From contig KB217478.1 of NCBI GenBank assembly GCA_000331305.1, positions 64,544-112,543 on the forward strand: a DNA stretch of 48,000 bases. The letters run 5' to 3'. Below the pieces are notes generated by a model. That model saw nothing but the letters and a program-made list of their open reading frames with translations, made no database searches and was not told where the DNA came from. Within the stretch, counting starts at the first letter, position 1. Every line of letters begins with the position of its first letter. Made by a program: the position numbers and the translations under genes. Source of the stretch: Calothrix sp. PCC 7103. Lineage in GTDB: Bacteria; Cyanobacteriota; Cyanobacteriia; Cyanobacteriales; Nostocaceae. This document shows, one piece after another, positions 8,701-45,617 of the stretch.

Positions 8701-9275
8701 TTGCCAGATACTTTAATTAGAGTATTTTCAACAGGCTGATAATCGTTGCTATCAAAGCAATAGATTAACTTTTGTAAAGTTGTGTTGTTGATAACTTGTT
8801 GAACATCTAAACAAGGTAAACCTGAAGAGTTCTTTGAATTATCGTTTATTAGTGTGATTAAATGCTTACCTGGTAAGACGTTGGGTTGTAAGTACAAGTT
8901 AAGCACTTGCTTTGAACCTTGGGCATTACTCAAATATCCAGCATATAAGCAGCCAAGCTCCCCACACAAATTGGGAGAATTGAAGTTAAATATATACAAG
9001 TGATTCTTTCCTCTTGTTGGAATCACAGCAACTTTAATACCACTAATTTGAGTAGATGGTAAGGTTGTATTTTGAGTAGTAGCTGATAAAAGTAGTGATT
9101 TAGGAACTGCATTAGCATTTTGCCAATTTAGAGAAGTTCCCAAACCATTATCATTACTGCAACCACTAAGGAATAAGCTGGTTATTAGTAAAGAAAATCC
9201 CAAAGCTAGGTGAAAGTAGCGCACTAAACGCACTACTTTTATATAAACAACAGAATCTAGTTTCATGATTAGCAC
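8697..9275 (-). CDS. putative lipoprotein (T4SS-associated by context)
   Basis: Signal peptide with lipobox LFLSGC. A 4-nt overlap with the T4CP gene and a 7-nt overlap with the upstream gene suggest translational coupling. Confidence 0.5.
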   Translation of the reverse strand: MLIMKLDSVVYIKVVRLVRYFHLALGFSLLITSLFLSGCSNDNGLGTSLNWQNANAVPKSLLLSATTQNTTLPSTQISGIKVAVIPTRGKNHLYIFNFNSPNLCGELGCLYAGYLSNAQGSKQVLNLYLQPNVLPGKHLITLINDNSKNSSGLPCLDVQQVINNTTLQKLIYCFDSNDYQPVENTLIKVSGK

Positions 9276-23792: not shown

Positions 23793-24875
23793 AGTAGTTA
23801 CGCAAAATCGATTATATATTCTTCTCCAAAATTCTTTAAGATGTATTCTACTGACTCAACCAACCTCTCCCAACTCTCATAAGCATCTATTTCTAGCCAA
23901 TAATATTTAATAAAACGCCACAAAGATTCAATGATATTCAATTCGGGGGAGTATGTGGGTAGGAAAAATAAGGTTAATCCTTTTTCTTTCCATTCTTCTA
24001 GTTTATCAAGTAGCGCATGACTAGTATGAATTGAAGAATTATCAACTACTAATACAGTCTTTTTCTCAAGAGTTTCACAAAATTTATCAATACATGCTAT
24101 TACAACATCACTATTAATGCTGCGTTCAAATAAATAAACCTCTAAATCGTTTCTTCTATTTAAAAAGCCTAAAGCATTTAAACGCTTACTTCTCTGAGTT
24201 TTTACAATAATAGTTTCTCCTTTTTCTTGCCATGCATATGGAACATAAGAAGTTAAGCAAAACCCTGTTTCATCAACATATCTTAAATCAATTTCTCCTC
24301 TATCGTCTTGTTTTCTTAATTCTTCTAATTCTTCCTTTTTTTGCTTGTATACTGACTCTTCTGGCTCTCCTGCCACGCCTCTTTTAATGCGGCGCCATGT
24401 AACATCAAAAAACTCTAAAACTCGCTTAATTGTATCATTACTAACATCAATTCCCCATTCATCTCTAATTTTCATTCTTACAATATGTAAATTTCTTGAA
24501 TTTTCAAGCGACCAGTGTTTAACCTGCTCTTTTTGTTCATCATCTAATTTTGACTTTCTTCCTCTTCCCTTTTTGTCGTATAACCCAGCTAGTACATAAT
24601 TATCCCAATCATCAAACCAGTTAGTAATCGTTAGACGACTGACATTAAAAATTTTAGTTAAGTCGGTTATTTTATATCCATCATGACTTAATTTTATACA
24701 CTGCGCTCTCTGCCGTACTTGATGATATTTACTGTATTTATAAATTCTTTCTAAAATTTTGATGGTTTCTTGACTTAATCCTTTGATAAAACGCATGTTC
24801 GCACCCCTTTCTTGACGTTTTAGTTTTCTAGTCATAGTTTATCATGAAATGCATAAATATTTTTGCGTACCTACT
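23793..24875 (-). mobile_element. IS630-family insertion sequence (1083 bp) with TA target-site duplication
   Basis: Terminal inverted repeats AGTAGTTACGCAAAA (23793-) and AGTAGGTACGCAAAA (reverse complement of -24875) match at 14 of 15 positions. TA flanks the element at 23791-23792 and 24876-24877. It carries a single transposase ORF. Confidence 0.85.
23798..24835 (-). CDS. IS630-family (Tc1/mariner-like) DDE transposase
   Basis: N-terminal HTH region, then DDE residues in YVDETGF, LVVDNSSIHTS and LPTYSPELNIIESLWRFIK. 345 aa. Confidence 0.9.
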   Translation of the reverse strand: MTRKLKRQERGANMRFIKGLSQETIKILERIYKYSKYHQVRQRAQCIKLSHDGYKITDLTKIFNVSRLTITNWFDDWDNYVLAGLYDKKGRGRKSKLDDEQKEQVKHWSLENSRNLHIVRMKIRDEWGIDVSNDTIKRVLEFFDVTWRRIKRGVAGEPEESVYKQKKEELEELRKQDDRGEIDLRYVDETGFCLTSYVPYAWQEKGETIIVKTQRSKRLNALGFLNRRNDLEVYLFERSINSDVVIACIDKFCETLEKKTVLVVDNSSIHTSHALLDKLEEWKEKGLTLFFLPTYSPELNIIESLWRFIKYYWLEIDAYESWERLVESVEYILKNFGEEYIIDFA

Positions 24876-26968: not shown

Positions 26969-27220
26969 CAAAAACTCAAAAGTGGTCTAGTCTTTTGGGC
27001 AGCTAGATTGGTCGTTAATGATAAACAATCCGCTGAAAGTACTACTGTATAAGCTTTTAAGACTAAATTATAGATTTATAAAAGGCACAAAAACTTAATA
27101 ATTGATGATTGATAAATCGCTAAGTTGAGATTAATTTAGGATTAGTGTTCTTGTGATTGAACGGCGCCTGACTACAAGAATGCCTAGCCAATCACTTCAG
27201 GAAAGCAGGAGAGTTCAACA

Positions 27221-27484
27221 ATGTTTCAGTTAGTCGATAAGCGACAAGCGAGAGAAAAACTCAATCTAAGCTTTACCACCCTCAAGAAATATCGTCGAGA
27301 CGGCACATGGGTGGAAGGAATCCACTGGGTAGAAATTAACTGTCGATGTATTCGTTATAACCTGGAGCTTATTCAAGATTGGTTACATAACCGCAATGAC
27401 CCCAAAGCACATCTTCGCGCGATTGAAAAATTCCGTGCCAGTTTAGCCAGTAACCAAAGAGGTTCTGGCAGAAAACAGAGTTGA
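27221..27484 (+). CDS. excisionase/AlpA-like helix-turn-helix DNA-binding protein
   Basis: LNLSFTTLKKYRRDGTWVEGIHWVE...IRYNLELIQDWL matches the HTH_17/excisionase-family pattern. 87 aa. Confidence 0.5.
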   Translation: MFQLVDKRQAREKLNLSFTTLKKYRRDGTWVEGIHWVEINCRCIRYNLELIQDWLHNRNDPKAHLRAIEKFRASLASNQRGSGRKQS

Positions 27485-27607
27485 GGACCTAGAAGTTGTC
27501 GTAAAGCGCTAGTTTGAGGTGCCAATATAAAGTGCGTGTACTTATCCTAAGCATTATTGAAACCAGACCATTAATTTTAATAGCCACAAGCAATAGAAAT
27601 ATTTACA

Positions 27608-27730
27608 GGACTTACGCAAAAATTTTGTCATGCTTCACTGCGTTCAGCATCTCAGAGATTCTACCCTTCGGGAAAACTTCGTTTACACTGCGTTCAGAAT
27701 GACAGTTTTTCGTTAAAATGCGTAAGTCCT
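27608..27730. mobile_element. MITE-like element with 12-bp perfect terminal inverted repeats
   Basis: AGGACTTACGCA at 27608-27619 and its reverse complement TGCGTAAGTCCT at 27719-27730. Subterminal TGTCAT/ATGACA and an internal direct repeat CACTGCGTTCAG x2. No coding capacity. Confidence 0.5.
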
Positions 27731-28017
27731 AAGTTAGACTGTATCTCGGCTCAACCTCTTCTCGACTGGCGCCGAAAGAATTTCTAGACTACGCATCATA
27801 AAATGAAGTGTTGGTGCCGTGCGCCTAAATATTTTTCCTATTTTTTCAAAACCTGCGTAAAAACTCCCGGTCTGATTCGTACAAGGGTTTAGAGAAGTAA
27901 AGGAGTTAGACATTATGCTTTGATAAACAAGCGATAGTCTGACTATCTAATTAACTCCAAATATGCCGAGCGCTAAATATAGCCATCACTTATCAATTCT
28001 AAACACTACTCATATTT

Positions 28018-29052
28018 ATGATACATCAATCAGTAGCAAGCTGTATTGGACAAACTCCACTCGTTCAATTAAATCGCTTATTTCCTTACAAGGGAATCAA
28101 TGTTATCGCCAAACTAGAATTTTTAAATCCAGGTGGTAGCGTCAAAGACCGTCCCGCGCGCTTTATTGTTGAACAAGGATTACAAAATGGAACTATTGAT
28201 CAAAAAACCCACCTAATTGAAAGTACTTCTGGCAATTTAGGTATCGCTTTAGCAATGGTAGCAAAAGTCTATAACCTGCAATTCACCTGTGTAGTAGACC
28301 CAAAAATTTCGGCAACGAATTTGCAAATACTCCACTTGTTAGGAGCAAATATTGAGATGGTTCATGTGCGTGATGACCAAGGTGGCTATCTCAAATCTAG
28401 AATTCAACGGGTTCAAGAACTATTGCACGATATCCCCCAAAGTCTCTGGATTAACCAATATGCCAACGATTTGAACTGGCAGGCACATTACTACGGCACG
28501 GGTAGCGAAATGGTTGCAAGCCTTGATGGTTCTATCGACTGTCTCATCCTCCCTGTTAGCACTACAGGAACAATGTTGGGAATTTCCCGCCGTCTGCGCT
28601 CAGAATTTCCAGGGCTTAGGGTAATTGCCGTTGATGCCGTAGGTTCTGTCATTTTTGGGACACCTTCAGGACAACGAGAGATACCTGGTATTGGGGCTAG
28701 TCGAGTACCCGAACTTAGTAAGCAGATTGAGGTTGATGAGGTTATCTACGTTAATGACTGGGAGTCTGCACAGGGTTGCCGCGCTCTGGTCAAATATGAA
28801 GGCATCTTTGCTGGTGGTTCTTCTGGGTCTGTAATCGCCGCTATTCAAAAACTTCTTCCCAGTGTGCCTTCTCCTTATCGCATCCTGACTCTTTTCCCCG
28901 ACCGAGGAGAACGCTATCTAAATATGGTCTACGACGACAACTGGGTTGGACAGCTACATCATTCAGATGCACAACCCAATTTATCCACTTTTACCACTAA
29001 GCTGCCCACGTTCAACAAAGCTGAACTCAAAAACCTAAATCTATTGACTTAA
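28018..29052 (+). CDS. sbnA: SbnA-type PLP-dependent enzyme (2,3-diaminopropionate biosynthesis, N-(2-amino-2-carboxyethyl)-L-glutamate synthase)
   Basis: PLP-lysine motif NPGGSVKDRPA plus blocks I recall as SbnA-specific: HLIESTSGNLGIALAM, TCVVDPKISATNL, WINQYANDLNWQAHY, PGIGASRVPE, YEGIFAGGSSGSVIAAI. It is paired with an SbnB-like gene. Confidence 0.8.
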   Translation: MIHQSVASCIGQTPLVQLNRLFPYKGINVIAKLEFLNPGGSVKDRPARFIVEQGLQNGTIDQKTHLIESTSGNLGIALAMVAKVYNLQFTCVVDPKISATNLQILHLLGANIEMVHVRDDQGGYLKSRIQRVQELLHDIPQSLWINQYANDLNWQAHYYGTGSEMVASLDGSIDCLILPVSTTGTMLGISRRLRSEFPGLRVIAVDAVGSVIFGTPSGQREIPGIGASRVPELSKQIEVDEVIYVNDWESAQGCRALVKYEGIFAGGSSGSVIAAIQKLLPSVPSPYRILTLFPDRGERYLNMVYDDNWVGQLHHSDAQPNLSTFTTKLPTFNKAELKNLNLLT

Positions 29053-29061
29053 AAGAGAAAT

Positions 29062-30097
29062 ATGCAACAACATCACTCTACCGCCAAAATACCAACAATT
29101 CTCTACCTGAGCAAATCTGACATTATCCAACTTGGTGGAAATTCCTCTCATCTATATATAGAAGCTGTCAATCATGCTCTGACTCTCCATGCTAAAGGCG
29201 AAATTGTCCAGCCACTCAAGCCTTATTTACGTTGGCGTGGAAATGAAAACCATATTGCTGACCGAATTATTGCGATGCCAGCTTATCTAGGTGGCGAGAG
29301 TTCTATAGCTGGTTTGAAATGGGTTGGGAGCAAGCATGATAACCCATCTCGATCTGGTTTGGAACGAGCCAGCGCGCTCATTGTTCTGAATGATACTCAG
29401 ACTCATTACCCTCTCGCGATTATGGAAGGAAGCCTGATTAGTGGTATGCGAACAGCGGCAGTTACCGCAGTCGCAACTCGCCACTTAGCTCGAAAAAATT
29501 TTAGTGATGTCACATGCATTGGCTGCGGTCCAATTGCTCGGATGCAACTGCTGACACTAATTGAGCAATTTCCATCCATTACTACCATCCACCTTTTTGA
29601 CCTTAACCCCTTTGCAGCAAAGAATTTAGTGGAAACTTTGCACCAATCCTTCCCTGATTTGAAATATCAAATTGCTTCAGATGCCCAAAAAGCTGTGCGT
29701 CAAGGCGAGGTAGTAATCACTTGTACGGTCGCAGATAAACCCTATAAGTAGGTACGACTGGCTGCAAAAAGGAACTTTCCTCAGCAATGTTTCGATTATG
29801 GATGTACATAAAGAGGTTTTCCTCAATGCTGACAAGGTAATAGTGGATGATTGGGAACAATCAAACCGAGAGAAAAAAGTGATTAATCAATTGGTTTTAG
29901 AAGGACGCTTCTCGCGCGAGCAACTCCATGCAGAACTGGGTGAGATACTTCTTGGTCGTAAACCTGGTCGAGAGTCAGATGAAGAAATTATCCTCCTCAA
30001 TCCAATGGGAATGGCAATTGAAGACATAGCTTGTGCCCAAAGCATTTATCAAAAAGCTGTTGCAAAACAAGTTGGCATCCGCTTAAACCTCGGTTGA
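29062..30097 (+). pseudogene. sbnB: SbnB-type ornithine-cyclodeaminase-family dehydrogenase, split by a frameshift at ~29746-29752
   Basis: ORF 29062..29751 ends ...VITCTVADKPYK*. The +1 frame continues ..ISRYDWLQKGTFLSNVSIMDVHKEVF.. into ORF 29798..30097. Together they span a full-length SbnB-like protein (HIADRIIAMP, KWVGSKHDNP, LLNPMGMAIEDI). Confidence 0.75.
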
Positions 30098-30270
30098 TAA
30101 GGAACATTGACAAGGCGTTGCACAAAACAGGGCTTTTGTTTTGGACGGGTAAAGCAAAATTCATAAAATAAACTGAAAAGCATACATAAGAATAATTGAA
30201 ATGGTACTCACAATGCTAGTCTGCAAGCAAACATATTTTGTCCAAAGTCCAATCAAAAAGATTTTAGCAG

Positions 30271-33200
30271 TTATTCTATTAGAACAAAATCAGAAATGAT
30301 AGTTTCAGGATATCGAACTAACTGCTCAATAATTACTTCATAACTCTTCAAAAAGCGCTCTATCATCTCAGCAGTAAAAGTTGTTGTGCTGTAACAAGCA
30401 TGAAATTTGATCGCCTGGGTTGTTTCATTAGGATAATCAGCATAAAGCTCCAGAGGGACATCTTGCTCACTCCAGAGACCACGATCGGAGCTAATAGTTA
30501 ATTCCTCACACTTGAGTATTTGACCCAACCAATTTTTTGCTGGAACTAATACAAAGGTAACAGTTCGCAGGATTTTTAGCTTGTTTTCCACTGGTTCCCA
30601 AATTTTTTCTGAGGGAATTGCATAGGTTAGTCCCTCAGTAACAGTTTTTCTAACCTGTCCTAGCAAAGAAATAGCCGTCTGGTTGCAGTTTAATTGAATA
30701 CCTAGTGGCAAATCACTAATGAAACAACCGAGTAATCGTTCGATTTCCAGTATACTGCGATTAGCTATTGTGCCGACTACTAGGATATCTGTTTGTTTGC
30801 TCCATTTGTGCAACAGAATGTTTAGTGCCGTTAGCAGGACGATAAAAGGTGTGACACTACAAGCGTGGCTGAGGGAAGCGATATTGTTGGTCAAACTTAC
30901 AGGCAGTGAGAAATGATATTCGTTAGCAAAAGACCTATCTGGTGTAGACTGGATTGCAGGAAAAAGATCGAGGGAGGTGGGAAAGTTCGCTAGGTGCTGT
31001 TGCCAGTAGGGTAAGTGGGCTGACAAAACTTCCTCACTAAAATTTTTGCGCTGCCAGATCGCAAAATCTGCATATTGGAGAGGTAGTTCTGGCAGAGGTG
31101 AAGGTTTACCTACCAAGAAGTTACTGTAGATGATTTCGAGTTCTTGTAATAAAATGCCACAAGACCAACCATCGGTGATAATATGATGCATGGCAATAAG
31201 TAGCCAATGCTCCTCCTCGGACAATTGAATCAAGATAGTTTTGATAGGAGGTGCGACCGTCAGGTCAAATTCGCGATTCATCGCCTCTCTGAAAATTCTG
31301 TATGCCTCAGCTTCTTTGCTCATCTGCGAACAGAGATACTGTAGATCGATGAACTGAAACGGTAGGGTAAAAGATGGTGCAATTTTCTGGGTGGGCTGCT
31401 CTTTAACAATAGGAAAGGTTGTTCGCAGAATTTCGTGACGACGGATAATTTCGTTGAGACTCCGCTCTAATACTGTGCGAGAAAGCGTACCTGTCAAACG
31501 TAGAGCCATTGAACTATTAGCTGCACACTTACCAGCAAATTTATGCTCTAAACACCATATATAATCTTGAGCAAAAGAGAGTGGGATAACCTGGGTTCTC
31601 GCTTGAGGCGACACTGCTGGTATCTTTCTAAATGAATAACCTTGCGTATTAATGGTGAGGGTAGAATCGATCAATTGACTTAAAGCGGCGATTGTTGGTA
31701 ATTGAAACAGACAACTGAGGGGTAAGTTAATCTCGAATTTTTCGCAAATCCGAGAAATAATTTGAACCGCTAGTAACGAATGACCGCCCAACTCAAAGAA
31801 GTTATTGTAAATGCCTACTTTTTTAAGTGCTAATACCGAAGCCCAAATGCTCGCTAGTATCTCCTCAACCGGAGTGCGGGGAGCGACAAAATTAAGTTCG
31901 AGTTCAGGTTGGTATTTTGGGGCTGGTAGAGCGCGGCGGTCTACTTTACCATTTGGTGTCAGCGGTAAGGCATTGAGTGTTACAAAAGCACTTGGCACCA
32001 TATAATCTGGCAGTTGCTCTTTCAAGAAATCGCGTAAATCGCTTATTATATTAGCTAGTTCTTTATTAGGGACGATATAAGCTATTAATTGTTTGCTGCC
32101 TACAATATTTTCTCTTACGATGACTACAGTTTCTTTTACGGCTGAGTGTTTAGCCAGTAAAGATTCAATCTCACCCAGTTCTATACGGAAACCGCGAATT
32201 TTGACCTGATTGTCAATTCGACCTAGAAACTCAATGTTACCATCCGGTAAGTAACGCACTAAGTCGCCAGTTTTATAAAGGCGAGAACCAGACTTTTGAT
32301 TAAAAGGATTGGGAATAAATTTTTCAGCAGTCAAATCAGGAAGATTAAGATAGCCGCGCGCTAGTCCATCACCACCAATATACAGTTCTCCTGAAACGCC
32401 GATGGGTACAGGCTGCAATTTTTTATCTAGCACGTAAGCCTGCGTGTTAGCAATGGGGCGCCCAACGGGGACATTATCTTCTACGTGGTTAAAATCTGTG
32501 ATTGTGTAGCAGCAAGTAAAAGTTGTGTTCTCCGTTGGACCATAACCATTGATTAGAGTACACCCTTTCAGTTCTTGAAGAGCCTTCTTTACATGAGGAA
32601 CAGATAAGACATCCCCACCAGCTAGAAGTTGACGCACATTTTTTAAGCTTTCAAGCTGCTCATCTACCATTAGGTGAAATAAACCTGCTGTAAGCCACAG
32701 TGTCGTTATCTGGTATTGTACAAGAGCTTGTCCCAACTCTTGCAAAGATGGTTTGTGTGAGGGCATAATCACTAGCAACCCACCGTTGAGGAGGCTGCCC
32801 CAAATCTCAAAAGTTGAGGCATCAAAAGATATGGGAGCAAGCTGAAGGAAAATTTCTTCTGCACCGAAATTTGCATAGTTGGTTGCTTTGACTAACCGCA
32901 CTACGCCCCTATGCATGATGGCTACTCCCTTGGGCTTCCCTGTTGACCCGGAAGTGTAAATGAGATAAGCCAGATTATTGAATGCCGTTTTACTATAAGG
33001 ATTTTCCTCGCTATGTTGGGCAACCTCTTCCCAGTCGGAATCCAAGCAGATAATGCGTTCCGAGCATTGGGGAAGTTTCTCCATTAACTGGGTCTGGGTT
33101 AGCAACACTTGCACTTTTGAGTCTTTTAGCATGAAAGCCAAGCGCTTAGAGGGATATTCTGGGTCAAGCGGAACGTAGGCGCCGCCAGCTTTGAGAATAC

Positions 33201-36200
33201 CAAGCAATCCCACCACCATTTCCAACGAACGCTCTACGCAAATACCTACCAAAACTTCTGGTTCAACGCCTATTGCTTGTAGATAATGCGCCAGCTGATT
33301 CGCTTTTGCATTCAATTCTCGGTAGGTTAGTTGCTCACCCTCAAATACTACAGCTATTGCGTCAGGCGTTAGTTCCACCTGCTCCTCAAACAACTGATGG
33401 ATATACTTATCCTGGGGATATTGTGTTTGAGTATTGTTCCATTCCACCAACAATTGCTGCCGCTCGGCTTCTGTAAGCATTGGCAATTCAGAAATTTGCG
33501 CTTTAGGATTAGTAACAATTCCTGACAATAATGTTCGGAAATGTTCTATCATCCTTGAGATAGTGCTAGCATCAAATAAATCTGTATTATACTCCAAGCG
33601 ACCAATAATGCCCTCTAGTCTAGAGTCGAGTTCGAGGGTTATATCGAACTTTGCTGTATCAGTTTGGATATCCAACTGACTTATCGTCCAGTCCACACTT
33701 AAAGATGGCACTGGGGGTTCCAAAACAAATGCCACCTGGAACAGAGGGTTGTGGCTTAGGTTTCGTTCCGGTTGGAGTGTTTCTACTAGCTTTTGGTAAG
33801 GCAAGTCTTCATGGGCATAAGCTTCTAAAGTTACCGAACGCACCCGAGAAAGTAGCTGTTGAAAACTAGGGGAACCTGAAAGATCGGTACGCAAAACCAA
33901 AGTGTTTAGGAAATACCCCATTAGCTTTTCAATCTCTGGTCGATTGCGTCCCGCGCTGACGGTGCCTACAACAATATCATCTTGCCCAGTGTAGCGGTAG
34001 AGCAAAGTTTTAAATGCTGCTAGCAACGTCATATAGAGTGTGACCCCCTCCTGCTGTGAGAGAGTTTTTAGTGCCTCTGTCAGGTTTTTGGATAGCGCGA
34101 AACAAAGTCTTGCGCCCCGAAAAGTTTGTTTTACTCTTCGGGGGCGGTCGTAAGGCAACTGTAATATGGACAAGTCAGTTAACTGTTGCTTCCAGTAGTT
34201 AAGCTGACTTTGAAGAATTTCTTTTGTAAACCACTGCCTTTGCCAACTAGTAAAATCCGCGTACTGTATGGGTAGTTCTGTAAGTGGCGAGGGTTTGGCT
34301 CTAGAGAAAGCTTCGTAGAGTGTTGCAAGTTCTGGAAGAAACACGCTGTAGAGTGAAACACCATCAATTATAATGTGGTGAAAGGTTAAGAATAGCCTGT
34401 AATCCTCGTCCGCTAGCCGCATCAAGGTTGCTCGTAGCAATGAGCTAGAACTTAGGTCAAACGCCTGCTTTGCTTCCCTAGTTGCCAACCGCAAAGCTTC
34501 TGACTCTCGTCTGTCTTGTGGAAATTGCCGTAAATCCACCACTGCTAGATTGAAAGTAGTGGGTGAATCTATAACCTGAACTGGTTGTCCATCAACCGTG
34601 ATAAAGCGTGATCGCAGACTTTCGTGACGCTGAATAATTTTGTTAAGAGCTTTTTCTAAGGCGGTTACGTCAATAGCACCCCCTAAGCGAATAGTAAAAG
34701 GTTCATTATAAACAGGGGTATCGGGTTGCAATTGTGCAAGGAACCACAGTTGCTCTTGTCCCCATGAAAGAGGCAAGTTTTGGTTTCTGGAAACTCTTTG
34801 GATAGAGGAAGCAAAATTTTTTTTGTTTTCCCAATCAACTGCCTCTATGCTCGTGGCTAATTTGGCTATAGTTAGGGATGCAAACAGGCTATCCACAGAT
34901 AACTTTACCTGTAAAGTGTCATACAACCTGCTTATGATTTGAACTGCTAGTAAGGATTGTCCACCCAACTCCAAAAAATTGTCGTGGATACCAATTTGCC
35001 CAAGTCCTAGCACTTCGTTCCAAATTCTTACCAACACTTTCTCAATCGTGGTACGAGGTGCAACAAAATTTTCTAGCCGTTCGAGTCTTTTTATATCAGG
35101 TGCTGGTAGTGTGAGCCGATCTACTTTTCCATTAGGCGTTAACGGTAAAGCATCAAGCAGTACAAAATAAGAAGGCACCATGTAATCGGGCAGTTTTCCT
35201 TGTAAAAAGCTGCGGATATGGGGTATCAGCTTTTGAACAACGTACCCCTCCAACTCTTTTTGTGCTAATGTTGCTAAGTTTTCTGTATTTCCAACAACAT
35301 ATGCCACTAAGCGTTTGTCGTCCGGTATATCAGAACAGACTGTAACAACAGCATCCAGCACGTTAGGATGTTGCCTCAGTACTGCCTCAATTTCGCCTAA
35401 TTCGATACGAAAACCGCGAATTTTGACTTGATTGTCAATACGACCTAAGAACTCAATGTTACCATCGCGATTGTAGCGTGCTAAGTCTCCAGTTTTATAC
35501 AGGTGCCCATCAGATAAATTACTGAAGGGGTTGGGGATAAATTTTTCATTGGTTAAATCAGGACGGTTCAGGTAGCCGCGCGCTAGCCCATCACCACCAA
35601 TGTATAATTCTCCTAGAACGCCAACGGTTACAGGCTGCAACTTTTCGTCTAACAAGTAAACTTGCGTGTTGGCTATAGGGCGACCAATGGGGACATAATC
35701 TTCTACGTGGTTAAAATCTGTGATTGTGTAGCAGCAAGTAAAAGTTGTATTCTCGGTTGGACCATAACCATTGATTAGAGTACATCCTTTTAGTTCTTGA
35801 AGAGCCTTCTTGACATGAGGAACAGATAAGACATCGCCCCCAGCTAGAAGTTGACGCACATTTTTTAAGCTTTCAAGCTGCTCATCTACCATCAGGTGAA
35901 ACAAACCTGCTGTAAGCCACAGTGTCGTTATCTTGTATTGTATGAGAGCTTGTCCCAACTCTTGCAAAGATGGCTTATGTGGGGGCATAACCACTAACAG
36001 TCCACCATTGAGAAGGCTGCCCCAAATCTCAAAAGTTGAGGCATCAAAAGATATGGGAGCAAGCTGGAGGAAAATTTCTTCTGCACCGAAGTTGGCATAG
36101 TTGGTTGCTTTAACTAACCGCACTACCCCTCTATGCATGATGCTTACACCTTTGGGCTTACCCGTCGAGCCTGATGTATACATCACGTAAGCTAAGTTAT

Positions 36201-36753
36201 TTGGCGTCACTTCGCTATAAGGATTTTCCTCTCTATATTGCGCGATTTCTGACCAGTCAGAATCCAAGCATATGATACGCTGCAAATGTTGAGGAAGTTT
36301 CTCTATAAACTGCATTTTAGTTAGCAGTATTTGCACAGAGGCATCTTCTGCCATAAAAGCCAAGCGTTCAAAGGGGTATGTCAAGTCTAGAGGAACGTAG
36401 GTGCCACCAGCTTTAAGGATAGCTAATAGCCCAACAATCATCTCTAAAGAGCGCTCTATACAAATACCAACCAAAACTTCTGGTTCAACCCCCAGTGATT
36501 GAAGGTAGTGCGCTAACTGGTTGGCTCTTGCATTCAGTTCCTTGTATGTTAGCTGCTTCCCTTCAAATACTAGTGCTACACTCTTCGGCGCTCGCTCAAC
36601 AGTCGCTTCAAAGAGTTCATGAATGCACTTATCATTAGGGTAATCACTTTGAGTATTATTCCACTCAACTAATAACTTATGCAGTTCTGCTTCTGTTAAA
36701 AGGTGTTCTGACTTTGCTACGGGAATTTCTGAATTATTAAAAGATTTAGTCAT
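30271..36753 (-). CDS. bimodular non-ribosomal peptide synthetase, domain order A-T-C-A-T-C (no TE, no starter C)
   Basis: Two adenylation domains (LAYVMYTSGSTGKPKG / LAYLIYTSGSTGKPKG, YKTGDL, GRIDNQVKIRGFRIELGEIE, NGKVDR). Two carrier domains (LGGQSL, LGGHSL). Two condensation domains (HHIIIDGVS, HHIITDGWS). Confidence 0.95.
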   Translation of the reverse strand: MTKSFNNSEIPVAKSEHLLTEAELHKLLVEWNNTQSDYPNDKCIHELFEATVERAPKSVALVFEGKQLTYKELNARANQLAHYLQSLGVEPEVLVGICIERSLEMIVGLLAILKAGGTYVPLDLTYPFERLAFMAEDASVQILLTKMQFIEKLPQHLQRIICLDSDWSEIAQYREENPYSEVTPNNLAYVMYTSGSTGKPKGVSIMHRGVVRLVKATNYANFGAEEIFLQLAPISFDASTFEIWGSLLNGGLLVVMPPHKPSLQELGQALIQYKITTLWLTAGLFHLMVDEQLESLKNVRQLLAGGDVLSVPHVKKALQELKGCTLINGYGPTENTTFTCCYTITDFNHVEDYVPIGRPIANTQVYLLDEKLQPVTVGVLGELYIGGDGLARGYLNRPDLTNEKFIPNPFSNLSDGHLYKTGDLARYNRDGNIEFLGRIDNQVKIRGFRIELGEIEAVLRQHPNVLDAVVTVCSDIPDDKRLVAYVVGNTENLATLAQKELEGYVVQKLIPHIRSFLQGKLPDYMVPSYFVLLDALPLTPNGKVDRLTLPAPDIKRLERLENFVAPRTTIEKVLVRIWNEVLGLGQIGIHDNFLELGGQSLLAVQIISRLYDTLQVKLSVDSLFASLTIAKLATSIEAVDWENKKNFASSIQRVSRNQNLPLSWGQEQLWFLAQLQPDTPVYNEPFTIRLGGAIDVTALEKALNKIIQRHESLRSRFITVDGQPVQVIDSPTTFNLAVVDLRQFPQDRRESEALRLATREAKQAFDLSSSSLLRATLMRLADEDYRLFLTFHHIIIDGVSLYSVFLPELATLYEAFSRAKPSPLTELPIQYADFTSWQRQWFTKEILQSQLNYWKQQLTDLSILQLPYDRPRRVKQTFRGARLCFALSKNLTEALKTLSQQEGVTLYMTLLAAFKTLLYRYTGQDDIVVGTVSAGRNRPEIEKLMGYFLNTLVLRTDLSGSPSFQQLLSRVRSVTLEAYAHEDLPYQKLVETLQPERNLSHNPLFQVAFVLEPPVPSLSVDWTISQLDIQTDTAKFDITLELDSRLEGIIGRLEYNTDLFDASTISRMIEHFRTLLSGIVTNPKAQISELPMLTEAERQQLLVEWNNTQTQYPQDKYIHQLFEEQVELTPDAIAVVFEGEQLTYRELNAKANQLAHYLQAIGVEPEVLVGICVERSLEMVVGLLGILKAGGAYVPLDPEYPSKRLAFMLKDSKVQVLLTQTQLMEKLPQCSERIICLDSDWEEVAQHSEENPYSKTAFNNLAYLIYTSGSTGKPKGVAIMHRGVVRLVKATNYANFGAEEIFLQLAPISFDASTFEIWGSLLNGGLLVIMPSHKPSLQELGQALVQYQITTLWLTAGLFHLMVDEQLESLKNVRQLLAGGDVLSVPHVKKALQELKGCTLINGYGPTENTTFTCCYTITDFNHVEDNVPVGRPIANTQAYVLDKKLQPVPIGVSGELYIGGDGLARGYLNLPDLTAEKFIPNPFNQKSGSRLYKTGDLVRYLPDGNIEFLGRIDNQVKIRGFRIELGEIESLLAKHSAVKETVVIVRENIVGSKQLIAYIVPNKELANIISDLRDFLKEQLPDYMVPSAFVTLNALPLTPNGKVDRRALPAPKYQPELELNFVAPRTPVEEILASIWASVLALKKVGIYNNFFELGGHSLLAVQIISRICEKFEINLPLSCLFQLPTIAALSQLIDSTLTINTQGYSFRKIPAVSPQARTQVIPLSFAQDYIWCLEHKFAGKCAANSSMALRLTGTLSRTVLERSLNEIIRRHEILRTTFPIVKEQPTQKIAPSFTLPFQFIDLQYLCSQMSKEAEAYRIFREAMNREFDLTVAPPIKTILIQLSEEEHWLLIAMHHIITDGWSCGILLQELEIIYSNFLVGKPSPLPELPLQYADFAIWQRKNFSEEVLSAHLPYWQQHLANFPTSLDLFPAIQSTPDRSFANEYHFSLPVSLTNNIASLSHACSVTPFIVLLTALNILLHKWSKQTDILVVGTIANRSILEIERLLGCFISDLPLGIQLNCNQTAISLLGQVRKTVTEGLTYAIPSEKIWEPVENKLKILRTVTFVLVPAKNWLGQILKCEELTISSDRGLWSEQDVPLELYADYPNETTQAIKFHACYSTTTFTAEMIERFLKSYEVIIEQLVRYPETIISDFVLIE
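30274..31596 (-). other. C-terminal condensation-type domain (HHIITDG at aa 1856-1862) in the position normally held by a TE
   Basis: IPLSFAQDYIW ... HHIITDGWS ... YADFAIWQ. It is followed directly by the stop codon. Confidence 0.7.
31669..31884 (-). other. NRPS carrier domain T2 (Ser ~aa 1659)
   Basis: FFELGGHSLLAVQIISRI; the Ser codon is at 31777-31779. Confidence 0.7.
31933..33444 (-). other. NRPS adenylation domain A2 (approx. aa 1104-1607), near-duplicate of A1
   Basis: The hand-read specificity residues are the same as in A1 (D-A-F-W-L-G-G-T-F-K). The DNA is ~90-95% identical to A1 by eye over several hundred bp, at an offset of 3222 bp. Confidence 0.7.
33499..34776 (-). other. NRPS condensation domain C1 (HHIIIDG at aa 792-798)
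   Basis: LPLSWGQEQLWFL ... HHIIIDGVS ... YADFTSWQ. Confidence 0.7.
34849..35061 (-). other. NRPS carrier domain T1 (Ser ~aa 600; unusual GGQS instead of GGHS/GGDS)
   Basis: FLELGGQSLLAVQIISRL; the Ser codon is at 34954-34956. Confidence 0.7.
35110..36666 (-). other. NRPS adenylation domain A1 (approx. aa 30-548)
   Basis: Core motifs A1-A10 are present. The 10-residue code read by hand is D-A-F-W-L-G-G-T-F-K. Confidence 0.7.
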
Positions 36754-37231
36754 TAAATTAAGTGTAAGTTTAATTTATAAAATAAAGTTGCAAGAGAGTA
36801 TATTAGGTTTTATTTATCTAATAAAACCCTGTTGATAATTACTATGAGTAGAGCAGTAGCTATCGTTCCTTTGGATTCAAGTTATTGTTACAACATACGT
36901 TTACCTCGCTGGTTATTTTTTGCTGAAATAGCACTGTCAAATAAGCGTCTCTTCCTGTAGTTTGGGGTACAGGGCACGCTTGTAGCTAATCCCAAAGCGC
37001 AAACACAATTTTCTTTGAGTTTTGCACTGAGAACTAGTTTAAACTCCAGTAGGTTAAGTAATGGTCATTTCTATGTTGGTCATTGATTAACTTAATGTAG
37101 CTGTTTTGCCTTGTGGAATAGTGTAGTCATTGGGGTGTATGTATTAGTACTTAACTACCAATGACTCTAAACAGGATTTTGGGCAAAATCCTTACACAAC
37201 GAGCTTTTAAGTCTCAGTATATTTTTAAAAC

Positions 37232-37435
37232 TCAAACCGGATTCCTATATATTGTAGTGTGATACTTTATACTTATAATTTTCTTAGTTACTGATTTTGT
37301 TTCTCCTACAGGTATATCTGTGTCTCCTTTCTGAAAATTAAGGACAATGGACTTATCCGCGTTATTGGTGAATGGAGTCTGAGTAGGTTTCACTGTTCTA
37401 TCAGTTGGGGTATCTGTATAGATTATTTTACTCAT
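37232..37435 (-). CDS. small hypothetical protein (67 aa)
   Basis: ORF only, upstream of the NRPS on the same strand. Thr/Lys-rich with no recognised motif (not MbtH-like). Confidence 0.25.
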   Translation of the reverse strand: MSKIIYTDTPTDRTVKPTQTPFTNNADKSIVLNFQKGDTDIPVGETKSVTKKIISIKYHTTIYRNPV

Positions 37436-37576
37436 ACTGGTTGCTGCTTTTTAGTTCAAGTTAAATTTCGGTTAAATATCCGATTGATACATAAATTTAT
37501 TTGCATTTTTGATGCTATGCATTCAAGGCAAGAGGCCGCCATTGGCGACCGTCTACACATCTATATGATTATAGTT

Positions 37577-38194
37577 TTATGCTGCAATTTGGTTTTGAGT
37601 TTCAAAGCTGTAACCATCACTTGGATTCCCTGTAAGTACCACTGTCAGCTTTTTCAAACCTTCTAGAGAAATTTCAGTAAAATTATCGCTCATTACAGCA
37701 GAACTGATAATGTCACCCTCTTCATATTCAGAAGTTATTCCAAAATATATCTTAGGGTGAAAAACAAATTCTGCTTTTTGATTTTTACCAACTTGCTCCT
37801 TCCTAGCAATTACTTTTTTATCCTTCAGGGCAATTACACAAATACCTCCGTCAGTGCTAACCTTGTTAAGCACATCAAATTCGTTAGTGGTTTTGTTTGT
37901 ACCCGTTTGTTTCAAACTAAAACCTCCAGGAGTGTCTTCAAGCGCATAGTTTTTACCATTTTCTACACTTATAGGCAAAGTTCCGCTGCTACCATTATCC
38001 CATGTTACTTGAGCCTCGGTATCAATAGTGTATTTAAACTTATGCCAAGAATTGTATCCAACGTTTTTTATTACCTGCCATGCAGTGGAGTAAGCAGAAA
38101 AATTTGATTCTGCTTGTTGCATGAATACCACTATTTCAGGGCGATCGTTATCATCGGACTGGTTGAGGAATGTAATTTCTACATCAATAGACAT
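37577..38194 (-). CDS. 205-aa protein of unknown function, paralogue 1
   Basis: The internal ATG at 38194 is preceded by AAGGAAG and gives exactly 205 aa, the same length as 39622..40239. Shared blocks: STAWQVIKN(V/I)GYN(S/C)WHKF, N(E/Q)FDV(L/I)N, KA(E/V)FVF(H/N)PK(I/L)YF, SEYE.G.II, FTEI.L. Confidence 0.6.
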   Translation of the reverse strand: MSIDVEITFLNQSDDNDRPEIVVFMQQAESNFSAYSTAWQVIKNVGYNSWHKFKYTIDTEAQVTWDNGSSGTLPISVENGKNYALEDTPGGFSLKQTGTNKTTNEFDVLNKVSTDGGICVIALKDKKVIARKEQVGKNQKAEFVFHPKIYFGITSEYEEGDIISSAVMSDNFTEISLEGLKKLTVVLTGNPSDGYSFETQNQIAA

Positions 38195-38841
38195 TGATTT
38201 ATCTTCCTTAAAGTTATTGGAGTTTTTTGTTCTAAAGGTAAGGGTTGTAGATAATATTGCTTGAATTACAAAAATATATTCAGATTTGGAATTTATCAAT
38301 ATATTTAGAGATAAGTTAATCCAATCTATCTATAATCTAAATCTAGCTCAAGCATAAATTATCTTTTTTCTACTTACAGCAGCCATTTTGTACAAGTTGC
38401 TGTAGGTCTTTTGCCCCTTTTAGTAGCTTTGGAAAGCAAAACAGAAACTAAAAGGTTAGCAAGCTGAAAAAATGTCCGTGAATAAATTTAGGCATTTAAC
38501 AAGGACACCTTTTCTTTTTGTGCTGTGCATGTCGAAAAGATTTATCTGCTTACCTGTATCATTTTTATTCTTAATAACACGCTCCCAACACCGAGTAATC
38601 ACTGAAATATTTAGTTTACTTGTAGCAGAGTATTTACGGAGCATCTACTAATTTTTGTTTTTTTTACTAAGTAAATATATTTAAATAGCGATAATATCCG
38701 TTTAGAACTAAGTCAAGTAGGAGGCATGTATAGAAGGAGAAAATATTTGATTTCACTTTAAGTAGGTGGGCAAAAATAAAGCACACTGGTTTTGTTCTGC
38801 TTAAAAGCGCTAAAGTCAAACTGTGAGAGGATTACAGCAGT

Positions 38842-39621: not shown

Positions 39622-40239
39622 CTATAGATTATTGTAACAAGTCATAAATTTATAACCTTTGGCTTCATTACCTCGAAGAGTAATTGATAAACTTGAACCC
39701 TTAATTAAATCAATTTCTGTAAATATTGTGCTGTTGAGAGGTAGGCAAATAATTTTACCGATTTCATATTCAGAGCAAATTGCAAAATATAATTTTGGAT
39801 TGAATACGAATACTGCTTTTTGCTTACTAGCAATCTGATGTTGTACTTGAATTGGATTACTACCCTTAAGAACTATAACAGAAATATTTTCCGACATACT
39901 AATATTATTAATAACATCAAACTGATTAGAACCATTATTATATTTTGTTTGCACTAAAGACAAATTTCCATTATTTTTTTCAAAAGAATAGCTTGCACCT
40001 AACATAATATTCTTGCTTAAAATTTCAGTTTTACCATTGTTACTCCATAGAATTAAAACCGAGATTTTAAGAGGATATACAAACTTGTGCCAACAGTTAT
40101 AACCTATATTTTTTATTACCTGCCATGCGGTTGAGCTTGCAGAGAAAGGTAATGTAGAAGGCTGCATATAAATAAGAATAGTTGAGTTATTTTGGTAATG
40201 AGACTTATTAACGTATGTGATTTTAATATCAGTATGCAT
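39622..40239 (-). CDS. 205-aa protein of unknown function, paralogue 2
   Basis: Collinear similarity to 37577..38194 (roughly 35-40% identity by eye) and identical length. More AT-rich and Asn/Ile-rich. Confidence 0.6.
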   Translation of the reverse strand: MHTDIKITYVNKSHYQNNSTILIYMQPSTLPFSASSTAWQVIKNIGYNCWHKFVYPLKISVLILWSNNGKTEILSKNIMLGASYSFEKNNGNLSLVQTKYNNGSNQFDVINNISMSENISVIVLKGSNPIQVQHQIASKQKAVFVFNPKLYFAICSEYEIGKIICLPLNSTIFTEIDLIKGSSLSITLRGNEAKGYKFMTCYNNL

Positions 40240-42896: not shown

Positions 42897-45617
42897 TTAA
42901 TTAACTAAAGTTTCTGTCTTGAACTTGCTCTGCTTCGCCATTAACTTAGCAAACAATCCCTCTTGGTTAGCTAATTCCTCAAACGTACCTTGCTGCACAA
43001 CTCTACCCGCTTCAATCACATAAATCCGGTCAGCATTACGAATCGTACTCAAACGGTGAGCAATGGCAATCCTTGTTACCTTCAACCGTTCCATACTCTG
43101 ACTCACCATTGCCTGTGTCTTATTATCCAGCGCGCTCGTCGCCTCATCAAACAAAATAATCCTCGGTTTCAACACCAACGCGCGTGCAATTAATAACCGT
43201 TGTCTTTGTCCCCCCGATAAATTCATCCCACCTTCAGAAATTACCGTATGCATTCCCATTGGCATATTTTCCACATCATCGGCAAACCCAGCCATTCTTG
43301 CAGCATCCCAAGCTTCCTCCATACTAATTAAGGCGCCACCACTAATATTTTCAAACACAGTTTCGCTATTAATACGCCCATTTTGCAACACCACTCCTAA
43401 CTGGCGCCGTACAGCAGAAACATCCAACCCAGCTAAATCTTGCCCATCATAGTACACCGTTCCCTGTTCTGGAATATCAAATCCCAACAGCATCCGGTAA
43501 ATAGTAGACTTACCACTACCACTTGGACCTACCAGCGCAATAAACTCTCCTGGTTTTGCCTCGATAGTCACATCATCCAAATTTAGCGGCCCATCAGTGC
43601 GGTAGCGAAACGTTACGTGGTCGAGCTTAACATACCCAGAAAGGCGCCCTGGATCAGCTTGATTTAAATTAATTTCTGGTTCTGTTTCTAAAATTGGCTT
43701 GGCATGTAACCACAACGCAGTAATATCAAGTAAATCAACCAAATTATTACTCAAACTTGTAACACCAGCAATAAACGAAGCAAACGCCGCATTAAACGCT
43801 AAAAACGTACCAGTAGATAAACCACTCCCCGCTTGCTCGGTAGCTAGTAAACTAGAAGCAATCCAAAAAGTAATAATTGGCGTAAAGCTAGATTGCAACA
43901 AATTAAACGCAGCAATCCAATCTTCAATTTGCTGGGTGCCCTGCATTAATTTAAGCTGCTTATGATAAAATCTTGCCCAGTGAGCATAAGCTCGACCCTC
44001 TGCGGCTGTAGTGCGGAGTTTAGAAATACCTCCAATTAGCTGAATTGTCATCCCAGCTATCTCACCATCTAACTCTTCTAATGGCAATGCTTTCTGACTT
44101 TTAAAATATCCAGCAACATTCGTCACCAACACAGTTAAAATCACAACAGCAACAGCAACCCACGCTAATTGCGAACTATAAACAAACAGCAAACCTAAAT
44201 TAAATAAAGCAAAGAAACTGCTGAATAACATATCCAGCCTTTCACCACCTAATTTATCCCGGATGCGGTTAATTGCAGAAACGCGCGATAATATTTCTCC
44301 AGCAGAATATTCTCGGAAAAAAGTCAGCGGCAACTTCAGCAACCTGTCCCATATCCCAGCTTGCAAGTTGAAGACAGAGTAAGATTCCAACCGTACTAAA
44401 GCTAATCCTTGTGTTAATCGAAACAAAGACGTACCAAAAGTAGCTGCCAGTAATGCCAAAGTAAGTTGCAGCAGCAAACCTCTATCAGCATCAGGAATAG
44501 CAGTATCAATCAAAACACCAGTAACTTGGGGAACAATCATCCCAATCAAAGTCCCTGGTATACCCAAAAACAACATCGTCCGTAGTTCCTTGCCTCCCCC
44601 ACGCATCGAATACCGGAATACATTTAGTAAATTCAGTTTTGCATCCGGGAAAGGAGGATAAAACATATACGCACCCGGCGCCAGCAATTTAGCAGTACGT
44701 TCATTGACTTGAGTCCGCTTTTGCGTAACAGGATTGTAAATCTCATAATACTTATTATTTACAGGCAACAACGCCACAGGAGTTTGGTCAGCTAAATATC
44801 CTAACAACGGTCCACAATCTGCCCTAAACCAGCGTTCAGAAAGCAATACACGCCTAATTCGCATTCGTGAAGCGCGCGCAATTGCTTCGAGAGGGTCTTT
44901 CACCCGCTTCATATCTTCCGACCTTGCAGGTGGACGAATGGGAATACCCATAGCTTTTCCAACGGCGCCAGCAGCTACTAACAAAGGGTCGCCAGTTGCA
45001 GCAATTGATAACTGCTGGGTTCCTAACAGCGAAACAAAATCAGTAACTGCTGTTGTCGTCAACTGCTGATTTAAACGTTCGCGCGCTTGAAACTGCACTA
45101 AATTTTGCTGTTGTGCAGACTGTTCAAGTTCATGCAAGCTCGAAATAAAGCCTTGCTGGAAATTCTTGAGAACAACACGCACTGTTTGCCAGGGCATTTG
45201 ACTCGAAATTTCAGGCGCCGGGAAAGGTATGGCTGTTAACTCAAATACCGAACTCAATCGCTCAAACCAAGTTATTATTAAATGAATACTGTTAAAAGAA
45301 CTTGTTGTTACATTTGCTTGGGTGGCGCCTTCATCTAACGAGCGTAAATTTAACTGTAATAAGCGAGTTTCTTTTGTGGCAACAGCCAAAATACAAGTGG
45401 AACCTAACCCTACTTCAATTCCAAACACTGCTTCCCCTGTCTCTACTCCAAATAAATAACGCCGCCCGCTTTGTAATACTGCATCTTGTATTTTCCCTGC
45501 ATACACAGTCATTGACCCAGACTCTATCACCCATAAACTTTCTGGATCATCTAATAGTAATACTTCATTTTCTGCGATGATTTTAAAGGAATTTTGTGTG
45601 TCAGATTTAATATTCAT
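42897..45617 (-). CDS. ABC exporter, fused cNMP-binding-like N-domain + degenerate peptidase-like domain + TMD + NBD (NHLP-bacteriocin-type permease/ATPase subunit)
   Basis: N-terminal beta-roll-like region (LLLDDPESLWVIESGSMTVYAGK...RRYLFGVETGEAVFG), six-helix TMD, Walker A GPSGSGKST, signature LSGGQRQRL, Walker B ILFDEATSALD. The NHLP-family assignment rests on architecture and the adjacent second exporter. Confidence 0.8.
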   Translation of the reverse strand: MNIKSDTQNSFKIIAENEVLLLDDPESLWVIESGSMTVYAGKIQDAVLQSGRRYLFGVETGEAVFGIEVGLGSTCILAVATKETRLLQLNLRSLDEGATQANVTTSSFNSIHLIITWFERLSSVFELTAIPFPAPEISSQMPWQTVRVVLKNFQQGFISSLHELEQSAQQQNLVQFQARERLNQQLTTTAVTDFVSLLGTQQLSIAATGDPLLVAAGAVGKAMGIPIRPPARSEDMKRVKDPLEAIARASRMRIRRVLLSERWFRADCGPLLGYLADQTPVALLPVNNKYYEIYNPVTQKRTQVNERTAKLLAPGAYMFYPPFPDAKLNLLNVFRYSMRGGGKELRTMLFLGIPGTLIGMIVPQVTGVLIDTAIPDADRGLLLQLTLALLAATFGTSLFRLTQGLALVRLESYSVFNLQAGIWDRLLKLPLTFFREYSAGEILSRVSAINRIRDKLGGERLDMLFSSFFALFNLGLLFVYSSQLAWVAVAVVILTVLVTNVAGYFKSQKALPLEELDGEIAGMTIQLIGGISKLRTTAAEGRAYAHWARFYHKQLKLMQGTQQIEDWIAAFNLLQSSFTPIITFWIASSLLATEQAGSGLSTGTFLAFNAAFASFIAGVTSLSNNLVDLLDITALWLHAKPILETEPEINLNQADPGRLSGYVKLDHVTFRYRTDGPLNLDDVTIEAKPGEFIALVGPSGSGKSTIYRMLLGFDIPEQGTVYYDGQDLAGLDVSAVRRQLGVVLQNGRINSETVFENISGGALISMEEAWDAARMAGFADDVENMPMGMHTVISEGGMNLSGGQRQRLLIARALVLKPRIILFDEATSALDNKTQAMVSQSMERLKVTRIAIAHRLSTIRNADRIYVIEAGRVVQQGTFEELANQEGLFAKLMAKQSKFKTETLVN

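Follow-up and report, generated by a model that had tools for sequence, protein, structure and literature searches.

How does a nonribosomal peptide synthetase (NRPS) release its product when it ends in a condensation (C) domain and carries neither a thioesterase (TE) nor a reductase? We addressed this question for a 2160-aa NRPS of the cyanobacterium Calothrix sp. PCC 7103, encoded on the minus strand at 30271-36753 of a 48,000-nt stretch of contig KB217478.1 (assembly GCA_000331305.1, positions 64,544 to 112,543), which we call the window and to which all coordinates refer. An earlier note, made from the letters of this stretch alone, had read the domain order as A-T-C-A-T-C, where A stands for adenylation and T for the thiolation (carrier) domain. 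The open reading frame (ORF) list, its translation and Pfam, with two matches each to AMP-binding, AMP-binding_C, PP-binding and Condensation, returned the same order (A1-T1-C1-A2-T2-Cterm). The protein has the collinear A, T and C domains of a modular type I NRPS, with carrier serines at S600 and S1659 and A10 lysines at K543 and K1603. We propose, with moderate confidence, that it is a complete two-module synthetase whose Val-Val chain is off-loaded by the terminal C domain onto a soluble nucleophile, most likely an amine. Specifically, A1 would load Val onto T1, C1 would join the T1-bound Val to a Val on T2, and attack by the soluble nucleophile at the terminal C domain would set the Val-Val unit free, following VibH or rhabdopeptide logic.

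The valine prediction comes from the specificity codes of the A domains. A1 (35119-36612, aa 48-545; Pfam and code script) and A2 (31945-33390, aa 1122-1603; a mosaic in the four-way nucleotide alignment described below), both on the minus strand like every NRPS feature given here, each yielded DAFWLGGTFK when the code was extracted with a script anchored on the A4, A5 and A10 motifs. The script recovered its controls (NcpA Gly, DILQLGLIWK; NosC Leu, DAWFLGNVVK; NosC Gly, DILQLGLIWK) and confirmed the code that had previously been read by hand. This code shares 9 of 10 positions with DAFWIGGTFK and is exactly the one tabulated for the Val module of the malacidin synthetase MlcM (PMC9113097), which supports the earlier prediction of Val for both modules. 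It turned up 13 times in a set of 32 related NRPSs, and two of these occurrences are the A domains of the window protein. A Val-Val product unit is a reasonable prediction from these codes, and Ile or other small aliphatic residues are also possible.

The terminal C domain (30274-31599, aa 1719-2160) was delimited by its PDB matches and clade membership. The stop codon follows it directly, 173 nt from the end of sbnB on the opposite strand, so that the protein ends, as the earlier note had stated, with an HHxxxDG domain (HHIITDG at 31168-31188) and without TE or reductase. The note had also named a TE concealed at the 3' end as a possible objection; it was searched for, and no TE or reductase remnant was found in the window. 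Likewise, tblastn and motif scans of the 48-kb window detected no TE, reductase, further A domain, MbtH or phosphopantetheinyl transferase (PPTase). Motifs C1 to C4 are present in the terminal domain as LSFAQ, RHEILRT, HHIITDG and YADFAIW. In a search of PDB sequences it matched the C domains of Txo2, Txo1 and TycC6 at E = 1e-48 to 2.5e-43, compared with about 1e-13 for epimerisation domains and 1e-10 for heterocyclisation (Cy) domains, and its HHxxxDG motif differs from the SHxxxD of fungal terminal condensation (CT) domains (PMC10510592). Judged by these matches and motifs, it is a condensation domain proper, neither an epimerisation nor a heterocyclisation nor a fungal CT domain. An AlphaFold (AF2) model built with 19 homologues reached a pLDDT of 81.5 and a pTM of 0.82, with a TM-score of 0.82 to the Txo2 C domain, and the modelled fold is complete. 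The Txo2, Txo1 and TycC6 C domains join L-configured donors (teixobactin, tyrocidine), and an L-donor type by ancestry would fit the terminal C domain; it is consistent with the absence of an epimerisation domain from this NRPS. The 32 relatives held no recognisable epimerisation-condensation pairs and hence supplied no D-donor (DCL) reference set for LCL/DCL typing.

Comparison with homologues placed the terminal C domain in a small cyanobacterial clade. Its cyanobacterial homologues (41-92% identity) all end 0-25 aa past the domain, and a metagenome scan with a clade-specific C-lobe alignment (alignment A2, distinct from domain A2) yielded 17 further loci, and in 17/17 of these 0-15 aa separate the domain end from the stop. 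The clade has a C-lobe signature (GCFI[NS]D, LWDE..PLELY, YS...F and YQ..L), and its invariant alignment positions G7, F9, W92, Y102, Y119, S120, F124, Y136 and L143 are all found in the window domain. Against 73 elongation C domains, the clade shows 19 fixed signature differences, such as GCFI(N/S)D for GFFVNT, and the window domain has 18 of the 19. The idea that this C domain ends the chain is thereby upheld, since the domain is of C rather than epimerisation type and its clade is restricted to protein C-termini. The clade is also rare: a HMMER pass with the C-lobe (158 aa) over 1.84 billion representatives returned 5 matches at E <= 1e-30 and about a dozen weaker ones, at the extreme C-terminus of their proteins. 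A scan of genome contigs with the terminal C domain, which was swamped by the generic QYADFAIW pattern, returned 78 loci, all with ordinary C domains (33-45% identity) and none with the clade C-lobe.

The hosts of the clade range from A-T-Cterm up to C-A-T-C-A-T-Cterm. As a whole, the window protein is a singleton on an 8.79-Mb contig, its closest matches being Nostocales NRPSs and its next full-length match being 56% identical; the clade locus L098 has a window-like A-T-C-A-T-Cterm layout (2239 aa), and P0006 is a three-module version, 55% identical overall. The code of the last A domain varies between clade loci. Together with the varying module numbers, this indicates that the release domain is not bound to one residue or chain length. 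An MFS_1 or MFS_3 gene lies just downstream, directly or past one small gene, in L085, L086, L092, L093, L095, L098-L105 and L108 (assigned by Pfam in 11 loci, and by ORF size and position in L100, L106 and L107). Thus, an MFS exporter follows in most clade loci but not in the window, where the convergent sbnB follows. Genes for transposases, for ParB or for a relaxase accompany several members of the clade as well. In L002 (1705-11701; JGI Ga0654495_0001614), two terminal-clade T-C units stand in tandem: unit 1 ends a 2533-aa protein and is 47% identical to the window T2-Cterm, and unit 2, which is 57% identical, stands alone as a 566-aa T-C protein some 700 nt further downstream. A 2165-aa protein of L002 was considered as an A-T-C-A-T-C twin of the window protein and rejected, as its last domain shares just 26% identity with C1 or the terminal C domain and the gene that follows starts with a C domain; the last domain is probably an epimerisation domain.

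The smallest host bears directly on how the chain leaves. L084 encodes a lone A-T-Cterm protein adjoining an FkbO-type chorismatase, and since a single acyl unit has no means of leaving by cyclisation, this line speaks for an external nucleophile. With modest confidence, and from these comparisons of clade members, we favour release onto a soluble amine. VibH and the terminal C domains of the rhabdopeptide and xenortide systems resemble the window domain in their intact HHxxxDG and in the lack of a downstream A-T, and release of an acyl or peptidyl thioester onto a soluble amine is proposed for it as well. VibH differs in that it is free-standing and distant in sequence, and no dedicated amine-forming gene is reliably linked to the NRPS here. 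Amine-related neighbours do occur at individual loci: L001 has a gene resembling Orn/Lys/Arg decarboxylases, P0006 one resembling deoxyhypusine synthase and L098 one resembling amidinotransferases.

We keep three alternatives to release onto an amine in play, namely diketopiperazine formation, hydrolysis and inactivity. The first of these, in which the terminal C domain would release cyclo(Val-Val) by attack of the chain's own N-terminal amine, we consider unlikely. It does have precedent: A-T-C-A-T-C is the classical diketopiperazine-synthetase layout, fungal two-module synthetases form diketopiperazines through their terminal C domains, and HtmB2 (hangtaimycin) probably does so too. Indeed, HtmB2-CT (8z0q, 8z0r) was among the top sequence matches (E = 1e-33) and the ten top fold matches (TM-score 0.80-0.82) of the window domain, and HtmB2 carries the last listed module of a system whose co-metabolite TDD, a Trp-Dhb diketopiperazine, is tied to the same machinery. 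However, HtmB2-CT is 23% identical to the window domain, no better than ordinary elongation C domains, and the fungal lines, of layout A-T-C-A-T-C(-T), carry SHxxxD (PMC10510592) where HHIITDG stands here. Furthermore, members of the clade terminate lines that range from a single module through two to three or more, with very different last residues, and the single-module line is incapable of forming a diketopiperazine. A different two-module system, AusA (A-T-C-A-T-R, where R is a reductase; aureusimine), was the second-best NCBIfam match of the window protein (1554.7 bits, below the cut-off of 2500). Both are stand-alone two-module NRPSs that start with a Val-activating A domain, but AusA has a terminal reductase and makes a pyrazinone from Val-Tyr, whereas the NRPS here ends in a C domain with Val predicted twice.

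The position of the protein end raised another alternative, that the terminal C domain serves ordinary elongation in a line split at the C-A linker, with Val-Val passed to an A-T protein elsewhere. The protein stops exactly where a C-A linker would start, and related Nostoc NRPSs (P0004, P0008 and others) end in the same way with a C domain, followed by a docking-type tail of 40-70 aa. Three of these, P0004, P0008 and P0013, are trimodular NRPSs that end with an ordinary C domain, an LTEAE linker and a tail of 40-70 aa (…LDGLSDEE.NALLNQM); these assembly lines have a natural split at the C-A linker and a docking tail. The C domains that precede such tails (LSDEE..LL-type), seen among the top full-length matches, have a canonical C5 motif and resemble C1 (45-55% identity) more than the terminal C domain (34-42%), whereas the window protein has no tail and bears the signature of the terminal clade. 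In addition, no A-starting NRPS is found within the 48-kb window. Taken together, these observations make a split line extremely unlikely.

We next consider how the two A domains came to share one code. The earlier note had described a repeat between A1 and A2 at an offset of 3222 nt, about 90-95% identical, and ungapped comparison at this offset bore it out: identity is 90-95% over about 500 nt and 70-80% over the rest of the A domains, and it drops to random beyond them, after gene nt 1400. A likelihood scan placed the low-divergence segment at gene nt 613-1065 (453 nt), with 28 mismatches (6.2%, hence 93.8% nucleotide identity between the copies) compared with 28.6% elsewhere in the A domains. 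The tract occupies 35689-36141 in A1 (aa 205-355, the maximum-likelihood segment, with Stachelhaus positions 235-331) and 32467-32919 in A2 (aa 1279-1429, from the likelihood scan and alignment), and its ends fall within about 80 nt of those previously estimated by eye. Codons for the same residue differ at 23/146 positions inside the tract versus 109/228 outside (Fisher p = 1.4e-10), and third-position identity is 0.80-0.88 inside and 0.36-0.60 outside. Because of this excess identity at silent sites, the similarity is not mere protein constraint. The tract holds nine of the ten Stachelhaus positions, Lys517 lying outside, and thus A1 and A2 share their code because the 453-nt core was homogenised between them. 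Of the two origins that the note had offered, gene conversion is supported by the silent-site test. A recent tandem module duplication is not supported, as high identity is limited to the A core (94.7%, compared with 72% in the A N-part, 68% in the A C-part, 50% in T and 35% in C).

The direction of the exchange is suggested by relatives of the A2-T2-Cterm part, the nearest being L001, a contig of a metagenome-assembled genome (MAG; GCA_031976215.1), with L002-L005 from JGI metagenomes more distant. In the four-way alignment, the 5' part of A2 is 78-92% identical in nucleotides to L001 and 81-94% to L002, and the 3' part is 88% identical to L001. The A2 core, in contrast, is about 40-50% identical to L001 and L002, yet 83-96% identical to A1, and the A domain of L001 has the code DSALIAEVWK. 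Since the flanks of A2 are orthologous to A domains of related loci with another core and code, the A1-type core is read as replacing the specificity of A2, and the simplest history would be that it overwrote the original A2 pocket. Synonymous divergence (dS) between the window and L001 is 0.14 in the terminal C domain, 0.70 in T2 and 1.16 in the 3' part of A2. The step from 0.14 to 0.70 marks a further breakpoint, at the border between T2 and the terminal C domain. Gene conversion is known to swap the specificity-conferring part of the A domain in microcystin synthetases (PMC3640908). The McyA2/McyB1 case resembles the present one in that the specificity part was exchanged and the flanks retain their own ancestry (PMC3640908), but here the core seems to have been donated by the partner A domain within one protein, so that building-block diversity falls rather than rises. 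In L001, an in-frame TGA occurs at 9719-9721, within the YKTGD(L) motif of an A domain, and the contig also has two 10-N scaffold gaps (7863-7872 and 8766-8775); either L001 carries a pseudogene or the MAG was misassembled.

Several observations weigh against a complete synthetase that releases Val-Val onto an amine. The C5 motif of the terminal C domain (LLGCFISDLPLG at 30700-30735) lacks the canonical Asn (N2013S) and Arg (R2018G) and departs from the canonical (I/V)GxFVNT(L/Q)xxR. These columns are 99% and 97% conserved in the 73 elongation C domains and 78% in the terminal clade, and they are among eight positions, conserved in clade and elongation domains alike, at which the window domain deviates. 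The concern, raised in the earlier note, that the domain might lack further catalytic features thus applies in part, as the Asn and Arg of C5 are gone. The C5 Arg is also lost in P0122, a more distant member, and the clade may tolerate this loss. A literature search for a salt bridge between the C5 Arg and the Asp of HHxxxDG returned no published support, and no conclusion here draws on such a bridge. T1 (34834-35070, aa 562-640; Pfam and motif reading) has the core GGQS at 34954-34965, as had been noticed before, and this core is unprecedented among the 92 T domains of 31 relatives, in which the residue before the serine is His in 91, Asp in 1 and Gln in 0. VibH matches the terminal C domain at E = 5e-7 and 32 bits, versus 170 bits for elongation C domains, and genes that could supply an amine show no consistent linkage with the clade. 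The absence of an exporter, PPTase or MbtH gene from the window weakens the account of a complete synthetase. The release function of the clade is a prediction from sequence, and no characterised relative was found; literature searches covering aeruginosin AerG (domain order C-A-PCP-C-PCP, with PCP a peptidyl carrier protein) and the term "terminal condensation domain" returned no characterised cyanobacterial terminal C domain matching the clade. Finally, the direction of conversion from A1 to A2 is deduced from just two related loci, and the in-frame TGA of L001 may mean that the whole lineage is non-functional.

T2 (31669-31857, aa 1633-1695; Pfam and motif reading) has the core GGHS, and the elongation domain C1 (33448-34782, aa 658-1102; Pfam and motif alignment) has HHIIIDG at 34360-34380 and a canonical C5, GYFLNTLVLR. 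The earlier note had pointed to a C-A linker sequence in front of A1 although module 1 has no C domain. Its recurrence holds: offset comparison places the N-terminal segment LLTEAELHKLLVEWNNTQ (36649-36702, aa 18-35; also seen in structure alignments) and the C1-A2 linker MLTEAERQQLLVEWNNTQ (33427-33480, aa 1092-1109) exactly 3222 nt apart. The significance attached to it does not hold, as structures with C-A pairs (McyB, Txo1, Txo2, SrfA-C) align from aa 17-18 and GrsA, a classical initiation module without a C domain, aligns from aa 25. Only about 8 residues (LLTEAELH) are thus peculiar to the linkers of elongation modules, which mildly suggests that A1 descended from an internal module. With so few residues, and with no C-domain remnant upstream of A1 in tblastn and motif scans of the window, the linker is not evidence of a lost C domain.

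The earlier note had proposed L-2,3-diaminopropionate (Dap) as the nucleophile, such that Val-Val would be condensed with free Dap from SbnA/SbnB to give Val-Val-Dap. Indeed, sbnA (28018-29052, plus strand) is intact, scores above the equivalog cut-off (TIGR03945, 417.6 bits versus 349.95) and lies within 1.3 kb of the NRPS 3' end, and clade members elsewhere sometimes adjoin other amine-forming genes, so that pairing with a diamino acid is conceivable. However, sbnB (29062-30097, plus strand) is interrupted: ORF 29062-29751 covers profile positions 2-212 and ORF 29798-30097, in another frame, covers 231-325. The lesion near 29747-29753 consists of a 1-nt insertion and two substitutions that create a TAG stop (CCCTATAAGTAGG versus CCCTATAT-TAGT), whereas the Logan contig L087, 97.2% identical over 27821-30160, has an intact sbnB of 344 aa. 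As the lesion lies outside any homopolymer run and the window shows no other evident split gene, we read the frameshift as probably a real mutation. Kobylarz and colleagues reportedly found in 2014 that SbnA alone yields only the ACEGA intermediate and not Dap.

Comparison of sbnA loci pointed the same way. In L087, a haem-oxygenase-like gene lies downstream of sbnB, on the same strand and in the position of the NRPS, and homology to the window stops at 30160. The NRPS is absent from four other sbnA loci besides L087, and neither sbnA nor sbnB occurs in the approximately 170 NRPS loci examined. Close sbnA loci are instead paired with haem-oxygenase-like genes, ATP-grasp genes, methyltransferase plus MFS genes or, on a Brasilonema plasmid, EamA transporter genes. 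Moreover, sbnAB and the NRPS gene are convergent and hence not an operon. The Dap proposal was thus not borne out, sbnB being broken and the relatives showing no co-occurrence with the NRPS, and we regard Val-Val-Dap as very unlikely. The sbnAB pair would instead be a broken fragment of an unrelated cassette, moved beside the NRPS by a rearrangement with its junction between the sbnAB fragment and the NRPS 3' end at 30161-30249 (homology limits at 30160 for L087 and at 30250 for L001). This removes, as unsupported, a tempting link between the NRPS and L-Dap and, by extension, BMAA-type chemistry. In both L087 and L089, sbnA-sbnB is followed by the haem-oxygenase-like (PF14518) gene; this gene was considered as a bridge between the sbnAB cassettes and the terminal-C NRPS loci and rejected, as the two sets share no detectable similarity. 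L088 (7212-15450; JGI Ga0671657_0000427) combines two ATP-grasp ligases, sbnA-sbnB, an S-adenosylmethionine (SAM) methyltransferase about 290 nt downstream of sbnB and an MFS_3 exporter. With its methyltransferase beside the Dap cassette, L088 might provide a route to N-methyl-Dap (BMAA-type) compounds or to dipeptides of Dap.

The wider surroundings of the NRPS are those of a mobile element. A conjugative or mobilisation module at 3060-24835 comprises a NikA-like gene, a MobA/VirD2 relaxase, a TraG/TrwB coupling protein, an AAA ATPase and TrbI-like and VirB4/FtsK-like genes; an IS630-family DDE_3 transposase lies at 23798-24835 and a weak excisionase-like ORF at 27221-27484, just upstream of sbnA. 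This suggests an integrated conjugative element in the 8.79-Mb chromosome, and by its gene neighbourhood the NRPS appears to lie in or beside it. Megablast of 27000-38500 against PLSDB returned a single 242-nt A-domain match and no relative, and no flanking repeats were detected around the NRPS. The NRPS would then be cargo beside a conjugative element, without the usual exporter and with T1 GGQS, N2013S and R2018G, and may be weakly active or decaying.

Decay could have gone further, and the NRPS could be an orphan relic: a recombinant fragment on a mobile element that makes no product and lies among broken pieces. The relaxase, coupling protein, type IV secretion genes, IS630 transposase and excisionase-like ORF of the flanks, the broken sbnB next door and the missing MFS exporter all fit such a relic, as do the loss of two near-invariant C5 residues, the GGQS of T1, the nonsense codon in the nearest relative L001 and the scarcity of close relatives in the HMMER pass. 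On the other hand, the 6.5-kb frame is uninterrupted and the A, T and C core motifs are otherwise present. The dN/dS ratio of the terminal C domain, 0.25 against L001, indicates purifying selection, with constraint in place at least until recently, and the C5 Arg missing in P0122 speaks for a clade that may manage without it. We therefore consider a relic possible but rather doubtful, and retain the two-module synthetase as our preferred reading.

Other genes of the window were unrelated to the NRPS or of unassigned family. Two paralogous minus-strand ORFs, 37577-38299 (240 aa) and 39622-40239 (205 aa), are 43.5% identical and sit upstream of the NRPS in AT-rich DNA of 31-36% GC. Searches of Pfam, NCBIfam and PHROGs gave no match to either, and none of the fetched loci contains a homologue; further ORFs of unassigned family near the NRPS likewise had no matches in these three databases. 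An NHLP-type bacteriocin export ABC transporter (TIGR03797, 960.8 bits) is encoded at 42897-45617, and a second ABC transporter at 46655-47998 reaches the window edge; this pair is an export system for ribosomally synthesised and post-translationally modified peptides (RiPPs), unrelated to the NRPS.

Bimodular NRPSs with a terminal C domain and replacement of an A core are both already known, and the gene itself is no surprise to specialists. Its history nevertheless appears to be a mosaic with instructive evolutionary scars, as three recombination boundaries relevant to engineering (the start of the A core, its end and the T/C junction before the release domain) are seen in one protein. Tentatively, the terminal domain may represent a specialised, uncharacterised family of cyanobacterial release C domains that is C-terminal, MFS-coupled and swapped as a cassette among mobile synthetases of one to three modules. 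Independently of this reading, the small chain-ending clade could be useful as a source of portable release modules if the nucleophile were known. If the family is indeed specialised, its release chemistry could differ from the TE, reductase, VibH and fungal-CT routes, for example through capture of a common polyamine or amino acid. The window would then show natural rewiring of a synthetase, with a breakpoint between T2 and the terminal C domain, a swap of the A core to Val and a fresh diamino-acid cassette as neighbour.

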